Counted from the stretch's first letter, positions 13,776 to 18,928 are shown. The stretch is DNA of 25,549 nucleotides from Promethearchaeota archaeon (GCA_019058245.1 JAHPZJ010000016.1:1-25549), one strand, 5' to 3'. Numbers and translations: made by a program. Notes: generated from the letters alone by a model not told the origin.

Positions 13776-14192
13776 CTAATCGTTATAACTTGTTAAAAAT
13801 TTAAAAACTTTTAATAAAATAAGTAATTTCCTAATTCCACGCATTTTTACTTTACGAGTTAACCATTTTTTCCCAATACCTAATAGCGATAGATTATTCA
13901 TAGCAATAGAAAGAAAAGTATATGTGTCCATTTCTAAAAAACCCTTCCATCCTATTTTTCTTTTTTTCAAATTTGCTTTCGGTTTATTAGGTATACTCTC
14001 AACTCTTATTATTCCATCATTAATTGTAATAAGAGCAGCAAAATCTAAGTTTGAAGCGTTTAAAAGAATTTTAGTATCCACCTTTCTAAATTTTTCTTTA
14101 AATTCCTTGTTTTCATTTAAAGGTGTTAGGATACTATTGATTAGAATTGCAAAACCTCGTAACTTTTTATCCTCTTGATTTGATTCTACCAT
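13776..14192 (-). CDS. SCP2-like sterol/lipid-binding domain protein
   Basis: Pattern ALITINDGIIRV...LEMDTYTFLSIAM..LS....WLTRKVKMRG matches the SCP2 fold topology. ATG at 14192; alternative TTG at 14210. Confidence 0.6.
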   Translation of the reverse strand: MVESNQEDKKLRGFAILINSILTPLNENKEFKEKFRKVDTKILLNASNLDFAALITINDGIIRVESIPNKPKANLKKRKIGWKGFLEMDTYTFLSIAMNNLSLLGIGKKWLTRKVKMRGIRKLLILLKVFKFLTSYND

Positions 14193-14310
14193 TATATTTT
14201 TTTTGAACAATACTTATTATCTGCTTTACAGTAAAATCTAAAATCCAGAATCAGATATAATATTTGGGTTAAAAATCTTAAATAAATTTAATAGAAGAAG
14301 AAGGGAAAAT

Positions 14311-15195
14311 TTATTCTATTTGGGTTAGGTCTTCCCAATAGTCTTTTATACTCCATTCTTTATTTGTCTTTAAATTGAACGCTATTTGTGTTAGGATTTC
14401 TCTTATTCTTTTTGAATTTAGATAATGAAAATTGGGAGTTATAGCACAAATCATAAATGTTCCTTTTCCACTTTTAGGAGTTATTATTGCGTTTTCTTCC
14501 ATTTTATCAATTAATGCATAAGCATCTATTAGGTTTTTGACAATTCTCATTATAAATTGTTTTTTTTCTAGAGCTTGCTCAAATTCATAAATCTTTATTA
14601 AAGTAGAATACAATTGGGTTGTAAGTTCTTCAAGGTTAAGTGAAGGAATCAGATTTTTTGGAAAGTACTCCAATATTATAGGTCCTTCATTTTCATCCCA
14701 TCCCATTCTGAAAAGATAATAAAAGTCAGCTCTACTAAACTTTTCGAGAGATGGTTCTTCGAACTTTAAAATATCTTTAAGTTTTTCTTCGACTTTTTTG
14801 GAAGTTTTTTTAATTTCTCTACTATCTTTTATTTTTATTCTGATTTTTTCTAATAATACTTTCGGACTAAAAGGTTTTGTAATATAATCATCTGCACCTA
14901 GCATTTTTCCAAATCTTACATCATCAGGCTCTGTTTTACCAGAAAGAAAGAAAAAAGGAATTCTTGACCACTCTGTCTTTTCTGAAACCTTCATATAAAA
15001 TTCATATCCATCCATTATAGGCATTAAAATATCGCTAATTATAATATCTGGAGGTCGCTCTAGTTTTGAAAGAATTTCTAATCCTTTTTTTCCGTTCAGA
15101 GCAGTTACTAAATCATAATCATGCATATCAAAGTAAATTTCAAAATTCTTAATTAGAACATCGTCATCTTCAACTAAAAATACAAGAGGTTTCAT
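14311..15195 (-). CDS. Response regulator: receiver domain plus C-terminal longin/uDENN-like domain
   Basis: REC: EDD, phosphoacceptor D55 (SDILMP), S85, KPF (K107). The C-terminal domain starts YYLFRMGWDENEGPIILEYFP; its assignment is an inference. Confidence 0.8.
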   Translation of the reverse strand: MKPLVFLVEDDDVLIKNFEIYFDMHDYDLVTALNGKKGLEILSKLERPPDIIISDILMPIMDGYEFYMKVSEKTEWSRIPFFFLSGKTEPDDVRFGKMLGADDYITKPFSPKVLLEKIRIKIKDSREIKKTSKKVEEKLKDILKFEEPSLEKFSRADFYYLFRMGWDENEGPIILEYFPKNLIPSLNLEELTTQLYSTLIKIYEFEQALEKKQFIMRIVKNLIDAYALIDKMEENAIITPKSGKGTFMICAITPNFHYLNSKRIREILTQIAFNLKTNKEWSIKDYWEDLTQIE

Positions 15196-15362
15196 TATAT
15201 TGAGACTTTTTTCCTACATTATAATACTACTAATTATCCCTTATAATAAAAAAATAAATATTTAATATTTATGAAATCGAAATATTGTCTAGATCCATTT
15301 CTAAATATTCTATTAAAAGAATTTTCTAATTAAAAAAAGAAAACTGTACAAAATCACTTAAT

Positions 15363-16315: not shown

Positions 16316-18928
16316 TTAATTCACATCCATTTTTCCAATTCTTTCAAATAACAATTTTTTGTTATTGTCAACATCAACTCTAATAATACTTTCTTCCATA
16401 AAATCCCCTTCTAATAGTTTTAATGATAATGGATTTTGTATGTAATTCTGGATTGTCCGCTTTAAAGGTCTAGCACCATAATCAGGATCATATCCTTTCA
16501 CACTTAAGAATTGTTTTGCTTTTTGAGTAAGAATAATTTTGATTTTATGAACCGACAAGATTTTATTTAAATTTTTAATTTGAATATCAACAATATCTTC
16601 TAATTGATTTTTATCTAGGAAGTCGAAAATGACAATTTCATCAATTCTATTTAGAAATTCCGGTCTAAAATAATTTTTAAGAGTTGCTAAAATTAGTTCT
16701 CGATTTTTTAAGGGATCATCATTTCTGGAATCAAGAATGTATTGACCCCCAATATTACTTGTCATAATAATAATTGTATTTTTAAAATCAACTGTATGAC
16801 CATGACCATCTGTTAGTCTACCATCATCAAAAATTTGTAATAAGATATTGAAGACTTCAAGATGAGCTTTTTCGATCTCATCAAATAAGATAACAGAATA
16901 TGGTCTTCTTCGGACTGCTTCAGTTAAGTACCCTCCTTCCTCATATCCTACATAACCAGGAGGAGCACCAATTAATCTAGCAATGCTATGTTTCTCCATA
17001 AATTCTGACATATCAATTCTTACCATAGCATTTTCGTCATCAAAAAGAAATTCTGCTAATGCTTTAGCTGTCTCTGTTTTCCCTACACCAGTTGGACCCA
17101 TGAATATAAAAGTCCCAATAGGTCTGTTAGGATCTTGTATTCCAGCTCTCGCTCTCCGAATTGCATTTGATATCTTGTTCAAAGCCTCGTCTTGTCCAAC
17201 AATTCTTTTTTTCAATCTTTGCTCCATCTTTAATAATTTCTCCCTTTCACCCTCCAACATTCTTGATACAGGAATTCCAGTCCATTGAGAAATTATTCGA
17301 GCTATATCTTCATCATCCACTTCTTGTTTTAACATGATTTTATTTTTTTGAATTTCCAATAATTCAGTATTATTTTGACTTAATTCTTTTTTCAACTCAT
17401 TAAGCACTCCATAAGTTAATTCAGCAGCCTTTCCAAGATCTCCACGTTTTTCAGCTTTTTCAGCCTCAATTTTTGTTTCTTCCATATTTCTTTTTATCTG
17501 ATTAATCTTTAAAATTAAATTTTTTTCATTATTCCATTGTAGTTTTAATTTATCGTTTTCTTCTCTAAGATTATGTAGTTCTTCATCAAGTTTCTTCATA
17601 CGCTCTATACTTGATTTATCATTCTCTTTTTTAAGTGCTTCCTTTTGAATCTCCAATTGAATGATTTTGCGTTCAATTTCGTCAATTTCAGTCGGCATTG
17701 AATCAATTTCAATTCTTAATCTTGAAGCTGCTTCATCCATTAAATCAATAGCTTTATCTGGTAAGAAGCGATCTGAAATATATCTATGCGATAATGTAAC
17801 TGCTGCAATTATTGCAGAATCTGTAATTCTTACTCCATGATGAATTTCATATTTTTCTTTTAAACCTCTAAGAATAGCTATCGAATCTTCTACTGAAGGC
17901 TCATCAACATACACAGTTTGGAATCTTCGTGTTAATGCCGCGTCTTTTTCAATATATTTCCTATATTCATCCAGAGTTGTGGCTCCAACGGCCCTTAATT
18001 CACCTCGAGCTAATGCTGGTTTTAACATATTTGAAGCATCAATCGCACCTTGTGCTGCTCCAGCACCAACTAATGTGTGTAGTTCATCGATAAATAGTAT
18101 ATATTTTCCTGAGCTCTTTTCAACTTCTTTTATAAATGCTTTAAGTCGATCTTCAAATTCACCTCTATATTTAGCTCCTGCAACCATTGCTGCTAGATCC
18201 ATAGCTAAAATATCTTTTTCTTTTAATGATTCTGGAACATCTCCACTTGCTATTCTCTGTGCTAATCCTTCTACTATAGCTGTTTTTCCTACTCCTGCCT
18301 CTCCAATTAATACAGGATTATTTTTTGTTCTACGGGATAGAATATGCATCACTCTTCTAATTTCATCATCCCTTCCTATTACAGGATCTAATTTACCAAC
18401 TCTGGCTAAATCTGTTAAATTACGGCTGTATTTTTCAATAACTTGATATTTTCCCTCCGGATCTTGATCTGTAATAGTTTGATGCCCTCTGATGGTTTTT
18501 AATGCTTGTAAAATCCTATCTTTTGTTATTCCATTTTTGTTTAGAATTGAATATACAGTAAATTCATGATTACTACTCATAGCTATTAATAAATGTTCGG
18601 TACTTAGGTATTGATCTCTCAACATATCAGCTTCTTTCCAAGCTGCATCAAATAAAGTACTTGATTCGTGAGATAAAACCACATCCATTGCTCCTGAACC
18701 TGTAACCTTCGGAATCCGCCCCATTTCATTGTAGAGATCATTTAATAAATTTTTTATATTTACTCCTAATTTTTGCAACAAAGGCGTTGTAATCCCATCC
18801 TGCTGATCAATTAAAGCAATTAATAAATGAAGAGGATCGATTTTTTGATGATCTCTCTCTTGAGCTAGAGATCTTGCTGCCATCAAGGCTTCTTGCACTT
18901 TTATAGTAAATTTATCAAATTTCATCAT
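16316..18928 (-). CDS. clpB: ATP-dependent chaperone ClpB (Hsp100 disaggregase)
   Basis: Clp N-domain, two AAA+ modules ([13 protein letters not shown] and [15 protein letters not shown]), pore loops KYRG and GYVG, a long coiled-coil M-domain, and GARPL. Confidence 0.97.

Follow-up and report, generated by a model that had tools for sequence, protein, structure and literature searches.

Membrane traffic and nutrient sensing in eukaryotes depend centrally on longin and roadblock platforms that act as switches of small GTPases, which raises the question of how such platforms were controlled before eukaryotes arose. In Asgard archaea, NPRL2-like longins fused to two-component domains have already been reported (Liu et al., bioRxiv 10.1101/2020.10.19.343400; Nature 2021), and the same authors suggested that two-component systems with 'eukaryotic' regulators stand at the centre of growth control in these archaea (bioRxiv 10.1101/2020.10.19.343400). 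These fusions, in which a longin of the NPRL2/FLCN kind is joined to REC, PAS or kinase modules, are of the same architecture class and from the same phylum as the gene described below. The part of that account that concerns them, one sentence and a figure, mentions neither cassettes with a GTPase, nor three subfamilies, nor an Arg-less subfamily restricted to one genus.

In eukaryotes, GATOR1 (NPRL2-NPRL3) and FLCN-FNIP2 are Rag GAPs under the control of amino-acid sensors, and C9orf72-SMCR8-WDR41 is an ARF GAP in which C9orf72 heterodimerizes with SMCR8, the donor of Arg147. A 2025 survey of longin GAP complexes (PMC12290439) described a 'GP motif' located where the second strand begins or in the loop leading into it, which is present in C9orf72, SMCR8, FLCN and NPRL2 and absent from FNIP2, NPRL3, adaptins, TRAPP and DENND proteins. 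The motif was reported as specific to GAP-type longins and was also found in Asgard longins (PMC12290439). In C9orf72, W33-D34 lies beside G38-P39 (PMC12290439), and mutation of W33 and D34 nearly abolished ARF1 GAP activity (PMC8213707).

Other described systems combine some of the same parts. Asgard archaea encode Rag-like GTPase-longin and GTPase-roadblock fusions, in an account that leaves receiver fusions unmentioned (Tran et al. 2024, PMC10933270). In Myxococcus, a receiver protein, RomR (together with RomX), and a roadblock/longin-type dimer, MglB, act on one small Ras-like GTPase, MglA. Thaumarchaeal REC-NitrOD3 response regulators have a Roadblock/LC7-related output (Galperin et al. 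2018, PMC5847659). Here we describe an Asgard gene in which a receiver precedes a longin-fold domain, and we compare it with these systems. The gene lies within a 25,549-nt stretch of DNA, all of which was analysed and which is referred to as the window.

Results

Identification of the gene and its locus

The gene is a single 294-aa ORF on the minus strand (Table 1), and the plus-strand frame is riddled with stops. Because the G+C content of the window is only about 28%, an ORF of this length is unlikely to have arisen by chance. More than 100 protein clusters match its C-terminal region at 54 to 83% identity, and it is therefore a real conserved gene; the orthologs of the window gene are 54 to 85% identical. 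All homologs with an organism on record are from Asgard archaea. Their public names are generic ('response regulator', 'PleD family' and 'RpfG family'), so that the records leave the C-terminal domain without annotation.

Table 1. Coordinates of the REC-longin gene, its parts and the adjoining intergenic region in the window
Feature	Coordinates	Strand	Basis
Complete gene for REC, a helical linker and the longin-fold domain (294 aa plus stop)	14311..15195	-	ORF list, translation, orthologs
Receiver (REC) domain, aa 5-119, phospho-acceptor D55	14839..15183	-	PF00072, alignment, Foldseek
Linker, aa 120-158	14722..14838	-	AF2 secondary structure and pLDDT; invariant alignment columns
Longin-fold domain, aa 159-293	14317..14721	-	AF2 domain model, VIA-align, Foldseek
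W166-D167-E-N-E-G171-P172 motif, strand 1/2 junction	14680..14700	-	Sequence
K241, aligned with the Arg conserved before strand 5 in other subfamilies	14473..14475	-	hmmalign
tfb/REC-longin intergenic region	15196..15362	-	Sequence read directly

The gene is on the same strand as grpE-dnaK-dnaJ-clpB-tfb and begins 167 bp downstream of tfb. Within the intergenic region, a T-run right after the tfb stop and an A/T-rich, TATA-like stretch ~40 to 60 bp before the ATG suggest that the gene has its own promoter; a consensus scan, the sites of which are of bacterial type only, found no terminator hairpin there. In agreement with the initial annotation, a Pfam scan of the protein found no HTH or histidine kinase domain, and neither a kinase nor a GTPase gene was found across the full window.

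The receiver domain is intact and is followed by a long helix

The receiver is intact, as had been read from D55, S85 and K107. Pfam PF00072 matched it with 75.5 bits, against a cut-off of 30.2, and it was recovered in the whole-genome profile search; the window genome gave 23 REC and 19 HisKA matches in such searches. In an alignment of 25 orthologs, residues E9, D11, D55 (codon 15031-15033, minus strand), S85, Y104, K107 and P108 are invariant, and D10 is retained in at least 90%. The receiver part of the AF2 model superposes on RR468 and CheY with a TM of ~0.9 (Foldseek). The top PDB match, 12aw_A ('hybrid two-component system protein', 279 aa), was set aside as irrelevant to the output domain, because its alignment covers the receiver only.

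The helical linker noted earlier is borne out by the AF2 model, in which the last receiver helix is prolonged to span aa 111-142; aa 143-158 are predicted with low confidence. The linker motif LKDILKFEEP is conserved inside the window-type subfamily described below, and E136, L139, I142, K144, E146, E147 and P148 are invariant across the 25 orthologs.

The C-terminal domain is predicted to adopt a longin fold

Because receiver matches swamped the fold search with the whole protein, the C-terminal domain was re-folded alone, with an alignment of the 86 relatives that phmmer recovered when 1.8 billion representative proteins were searched exhaustively. The AF2 domain-only model of 155 residues had a pLDDT of 87.3 and a pTM of 0.82. 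Its topology is strand-strand-helix-strand-strand-strand-helix-helix (strands 160-167 and 171-178, helix 188-205, strands 213-218, 223-231 and 246-253, and helices 262-276 and 283-291), which agrees with the beta-beta-alpha-beta-beta-beta-alpha-like pattern that had been proposed for these ~135 aa.

The best Foldseek matches of the domain, a check suggested at the outset, were all longin proteins, with weak E-values of 2e-3 to 4e-3: DENND10, GATOR1 chains (NPRL2/3), DENND1B, a SEA-complex chain and the Lokiarchaeota longin 8yqg. An independent VIA-align structure search of 48,161 chains was clearer: 8yqg scored a Z of 11.6, followed by Lst4 (11.5), VAMP7 (11.4), DENND1A (10.8) and the GATOR1 chain 8fw5_C (10.8). 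Sec22, Ykt6 and TRAPP subunits were further longin matches; solved longins overall scored 11.6 to 10.5, and their alignments span residues 15-155 of the 155-residue model. The predicted longin fold of the domain is therefore well supported.

A Roadblock/LC7 (MglB-like) identity was considered and rejected. In the AF2 model there is no more than a 4-residue helical turn ahead of strand 1, so that the N-terminal helix of roadblocks is absent; there are two C-terminal helices, PF03259 does not match, and roadblock domains scored below the longins in VIA-align (Z 8 to 9).

Profile searches at the sequence level gave no comparable matches. On the C-terminal domain, Pfam found nothing at an E of <0.01, and on 12 homologs it found just stray single-sequence matches to Afi1 (0.076) and Folliculin (0.14). 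NCBIfam matched the receiver and nothing in aa 140-294. A domain-only profile searched against PDB sequences gave two chance matches (E of at least 0.3), and whole-genome searches with the NPR2 and Folliculin profiles gave no match at REC-longin loci. A profile search of a word-indexed protein database returned the same family only, with no bridge to annotated longins. Sequence-level homology to C9orf72 was not detected, and likeness to NPRL2 was not reproduced with Pfam NPR2; one neighbouring Atlas cluster bears a 19% NPR2 tag. Because Pfam NPR2, Folliculin and Longin all fail to match, kinship with the eukaryotic GAP longins rests on the fold and a short motif. The protein ends straight after the second C-terminal helix of the longin, at aa 294, and has no DENN or NPRL2-specific domain.

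A GAP-type motif is present and a conserved arginine is replaced

In the AF2 model, W-D closes strand 1 and G171-P172 opens strand 2. Among 83 remote homologs the motif reads W-D-[DE]-x-x-G-P, with W, G and P near-invariant; within the window-type subfamily, the D of WD is replaced by N or S and the G of GP by E in part of the clade. The initial annotation had taken the domain for a longin/uDENN module. The longin fold and the WD...GP motif stand, but 'uDENN' is the wrong label for the motif, because the GP motif is reported as absent from DENND-family proteins.

In most members of the family, the loop that leads into strand 5 contains F-D-S-x-x-D-x-x-x-R-[GYF]-G, and this Arg is the only one conserved family-wide. 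We suspect that it is the counterpart of the NPRL2/FLCN/SMCR8 arginine finger. In an hmmalign alignment of 143 domain sequences, all window-type members have K, E or Q, followed by S-G-K-G-T, where the other subfamilies have this Arg.

REC-longin genes are linked to GTPases and kinases across the wider family

We surveyed the architectures of the longin-type domain (X) in the 83 remote homologs by Pfam scans, a survey proposed with the initial annotation. REC-X accounted for 53 of the 83, and X was also found behind G domains (Arf-X in P0154 and Ras-X in P0169) and in PAS-X, RsbRD_N-X, DUF1638-X and kinase-REC-X hybrid proteins. The domain occurs in 49 of 201 genomes of the phylum; two families account for 34 of 40 and 10 of 10 genomes, and two others have it in 0 of 43 and 0 of 19.

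Including the window gene, four copies of the domain were found in the window genome (G000; 3.09 Mb, 76% complete). One is in a cassette on contig C5 (L039:3425-7872, plus strand), which runs from an ArsR-type HTH gene through genes for a 182-aa Arf/Rag-like GTPase (C5, ~15.8 kb), a 651-aa MASE3-PAS histidine kinase and a 303-aa REC-longin (C5, 18.4-19.4 kb) to HSP20. Another REC-longin paralog (contig C14, 128.0-128.9 kb) is followed after 104 bp by a Gtr1/RagA-like GTPase (183 aa; C14, ~129.0 kb), with a divergent kinase upstream. A further copy, on contig C8 (L038:4798-8190, minus strand), is in a protein of 1130 aa in which a ~150-aa N-terminal region and an Arf-like GTPase come before the longin-type domain, and two PAS domains followed by a histidine-kinase ATPase domain come after it.

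At the paralog loci examined, the order kinase then REC-longin recurs with gaps of 40 to 90 bp, and the orders GTPase - HK - REC-longin and HK <-> REC-longin - GTPase recur in several families. A small GTPase lies within 3 kb at 20 of 31 paralog loci, against roughly 20% of the other REC genes of the window genome by comparison of coordinates; because related genomes are not independent, the figures are given without a statistic. Fusion in some lineages together with conserved adjacency elsewhere is the classic signature of a physical partnership, and it supports a probable partnership between the longin-type domain and G domains. The initial annotation had proposed that phosphorelay signalling is wired to GTPase control. 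As judged from gene order and fusions, such a link is well supported for the REC-longin family, with its Arf/Ras fusions and its GTPase-HK-REC-longin cassettes; for the window gene itself, which has no GTPase or kinase neighbour and has lost the Arg, the proposal is weakened.

Several observations were made alongside. HSP20 follows the C5-type REC-longin in most genomes of the genus, and this adjacency is a second link of the REC-longin family to chaperone genes. In the 1130-aa protein, the kinase has a GTPase-longin pair attached at its input side, and open frames near this length occur in at least six related genomes. The window genome has at least 70 Arf small-GTPase model matches in its 3.09 Mb, several of them in tandem arrays (C13, 274-298 kb; C31, 14-35 kb; C17, 75-77 kb). 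At C13:297086-297820 (plus strand), a 492-aa frame has a weak Folliculin match (E of 9.5e-4, below the cut-off) followed immediately by an Arf-model GTPase domain and may be an FLCN-like longin-GTPase fusion. Two REC-longin paralogs from other subfamilies also have a TFB-like gene nearby, which at L065 (G183) is co-oriented and 440 bp upstream and at L060 (G109) lies ~1.9 kb upstream in the opposite orientation; this may be coincidence.

The window gene belongs to a genus-restricted subfamily with a different neighbourhood

In a tree of 79 REC-X proteins, the window gene is in a well-supported clade of 26 sequences with a long stem. The family comprises three REC-longin subfamilies, two of them in conserved cassettes (GTPase - histidine kinase - REC-longin and REC-longin - Rag/Arf-like GTPase, respectively) and the window type as the third. 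The window-type clade was found only in the genus of the window, as a single copy in 28 of the 53 genomes searched (that of the window counted); a neighbouring genus gave two weak matches of 39%. In each of the four genomes in which all types were located (G000, G150, G192 and G195), an Arg-bearing paralog is also present.

No kinase or GTPase was found in the 1.5-kb flanks of 28 orthologous loci outside the window genome, and no second longin gene was found near the window-type gene in the window or at these loci. At 24 of the 28, the gene is flanked on the same strand by an FAD-linked oxidase gene and a CCG/Fe-S gene, the latter with a second FAD-linked oxidase gene after it; the gaps are ~80 to 180 bp, and the arrangement holds down to 56% identity.

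tfb lies directly upstream of the window-type gene only in the window, G257 and G275. In three congeners compared in detail, 4.6 to 5.7 kb separate tfb from the REC-longin gene, and ~3 kb separate the latter from an ORF of 144 aa. Judged at window positions 14211-14310 and 15196-15362 against L034-L036 and L072-L098, two blocks that most congeners have are missing beside the window gene, one of ~3 kb (CCG/Fe-S and FAD-oxidase genes) and one of 4.6 to 5.7 kb (FAD-oxidase, flavoprotein, ferredoxin and class II FBP aldolase genes). Since the window genome has only paralogs of the flanking enzymes that are 38 to 47% identical and located elsewhere, the flanking blocks were apparently lost and the regulator kept. 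The adjacency to tfb in the window thus appears to follow the loss of flanking genes. The co-oriented position downstream of the chaperone-tfb cluster, to which the initial annotation drew attention, is real in the window but is not conserved in congeners, and a functional tie to that cluster was rejected, because 4.6 to 5.7 kb of other genes intervene in most of them.

Within the chaperone cluster, clpB (window 16316-18928, minus strand) lies between tfb and dnaJ and is missing there in the congeners L034, L035 and L036. In L034 and L036, dnaJ and dnaK come next after tfb; in L035, dnaJ comes next, at the limit of the sequence compared. This looks like a lineage-specific insertion here or a loss in the others. 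On the other side of the REC-longin gene, the 144-aa ORF (window 13776-14210, minus strand) is kept in the genus at 65 to 76% identity. It was considered as a possible roadblock partner and rejected: it has no Pfam family match, and in the Atlas, where it groups with hypothetical proteins of Promethearchaeota, the one lead is a weak resemblance to SCP2 sterol-transfer proteins. In the orthologs L083 (G233) and L086 (G265), an in-frame stop (TAG and TGA, respectively) parts the receiver from the longin domain, and some 'stand-alone' database entries of 127 to 131 aa may be split genes or truncated gene calls.

Discussion

The window gene is of the Asgard longin and two-component fusion type, with REC and longin in one polypeptide in an Asgard genome. 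The fusion class was already known from the Asgard proteins of Liu et al., in which NPRL2-like longins are joined to two-component domains; the GTPase cassettes, the split into three subfamilies and the Arg-less orphan subfamily are not described in the literature compared here.

Among the eukaryotic proteins, C9orf72 shares with the window protein the longin fold and a W-D-x3-G-P motif at the strand 1/2 junction with identical spacing, and both are without an arginine finger of their own. Unlike the window protein, C9orf72 has a DENN domain after its longin and no receiver. GATOR1 and FLCN-FNIP2 are likewise structural matches of the window domain with a GP motif in common, and the parallel extends to REC-longin paralogs that adjoin Gtr1/RagA-like GTPases and keep the Arg in the loop before strand 5. 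In contrast to the NPRL2 and FLCN systems, the window subfamily has neither that Arg nor the C-terminal domain of NPRL2 nor a DENN domain, and control would be by Asp phosphorylation, where GATOR1 and FLCN respond to amino-acid sensors.

Among the prokaryotic systems, the solved Loki Roadblock-Longin protein 8yqg is the best structural match of the window domain; relative to the fusions of Tran et al., the receiver occupies the position of the G domain, and a phosphorylation switch would replace the nucleotide switch. The Myxococcus system differs in being bacterial, in having receiver and roadblock on separate proteins and in the output of RomR, which is no longin. NitrOD3 proteins are also archaeal response regulators with an output in the superfamily shared by Roadblock/LC7 and longins, but they have another domain family, belong to another phylum and have no reported GTPase context, and no Pfam match links the two.

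We tentatively favour the reading that the window protein is switched by phosphorylation and acts, without catalysis of its own, as a longin platform or a partner subunit. The gene would encode an orphan two-component response regulator with an output longin of the GP-motif class (the NPRL2, FLCN and C9orf72 kind). A kinase encoded elsewhere would phosphorylate D55, and this would alter the pairing or exposure of the longin by way of the long linker helix. The longin could then offer a binding platform to a small GTPase, or it could pair with another longin protein. The window protein would thus be a phospho-controlled adaptor or the partner of an Arg-bearing paralog, as C9orf72 stands beside SMCR8 and NPRL3 beside NPRL2. 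A non-catalytic subunit is preferred over a GAP in its own right because the candidate arginine finger and the kinase and GTPase neighbours have all been lost. The presence of an Arg-bearing paralog in the four genomes in which every type was located also speaks for this reading. For the window gene itself, any link to a GTPase would be inherited by homology only, and its FAD-oxidase and CCG/Fe-S neighbours, which point to metabolism more than to GTPase control, count against the platform or partner reading, as do the lack of a GTPase, kinase or second longin gene nearby in the window and at the 28 orthologous loci, the substitutions at the D of WD and the G of GP in part of the clade, and the negative profile searches with Pfam NPR2, Folliculin and Longin.

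Those neighbours are the starting point of an alternative that we regard as unlikely, in which the longin is a phospho-regulated interaction module unrelated to GTPases that controls or scaffolds the flanking FAD-linked oxidase and CCG/Fe-S enzymes (glycolate-oxidase- or D-lactate-dehydrogenase-like). The conserved placement of the gene between these enzyme genes on one strand at 24 of 28 loci would be explained, as would the loss of the candidate catalytic Arg and the partial erosion of WD and GP in the clade, and SNARE and adaptin longins do function without GTPases (PMC10933270). However, the gene is retained in the window, G257 and G275 despite the loss of both enzyme blocks, so that its function is independent of those neighbours, and all other branches of the family are tied to GTPases.

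That tie, together with the intact WDxxxGP of the window protein, could instead be taken to mean that the protein is a complete phospho-activated GAP or GEF whose longin homodimer acts on an Arf/Rag-like GTPase without a partner, as the initial annotation implied; the literature describes homodimers of longins and roadblocks, MglB for one, that are able to regulate GTPases. This is improbable, because the Arg of the GTPase-linked subfamilies is K, E or Q in the window type and there is no cognate GTPase gene nearby in the window or at the 28 orthologous loci.

A more elaborate form of partnership, which we hold to be very improbable, would make the window protein the Arg-less half of an asymmetric longin heterodimer with an Arg-bearing REC-longin, in which two receivers gate the assembly of an Arf/Rag-like GAP. 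If this were true, the ancestral position in a lactate/glycolate-oxidase-like cluster would tie GAP assembly to nutrient status, and the system would be a phosphorelay-driven prokaryotic forerunner of the logic of GATOR1, folliculin and C9orf72-SMCR8. The least probable explanation, a small-molecule sensor with a PAS/GAF/profilin-like alpha-beta sandwich that integrates a metabolite signal with phosphorylation, would suit the metabolic enzymes among the conserved neighbours and the weaker Foldseek matches to the SrrB PAS domain (E of 9e-3) and LOV proteins (E of ~3e-2), but both structure searches are topped by longins that align along the entire domain with its pair of C-terminal helices, the PAS matches cover just ~95 to 105 columns at a TM of 0.35, and the WD...GP motif and the GTPase fusions suit a longin platform.

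The naturally Arg-less and neighbour-less window gene is a possible contrast to the cassette forms or a candidate partner subunit. In the REC-longin family as a whole, prokaryotic two-component signalling appears to be wired directly to a GAP-type longin, often beside kinase and Rag/Arf-like GTPase genes, and the compact three-gene cassettes of the window genome and its relatives offer a tractable system in which to ask whether an Asgard GTPase is under the control of Asp phosphorylation.
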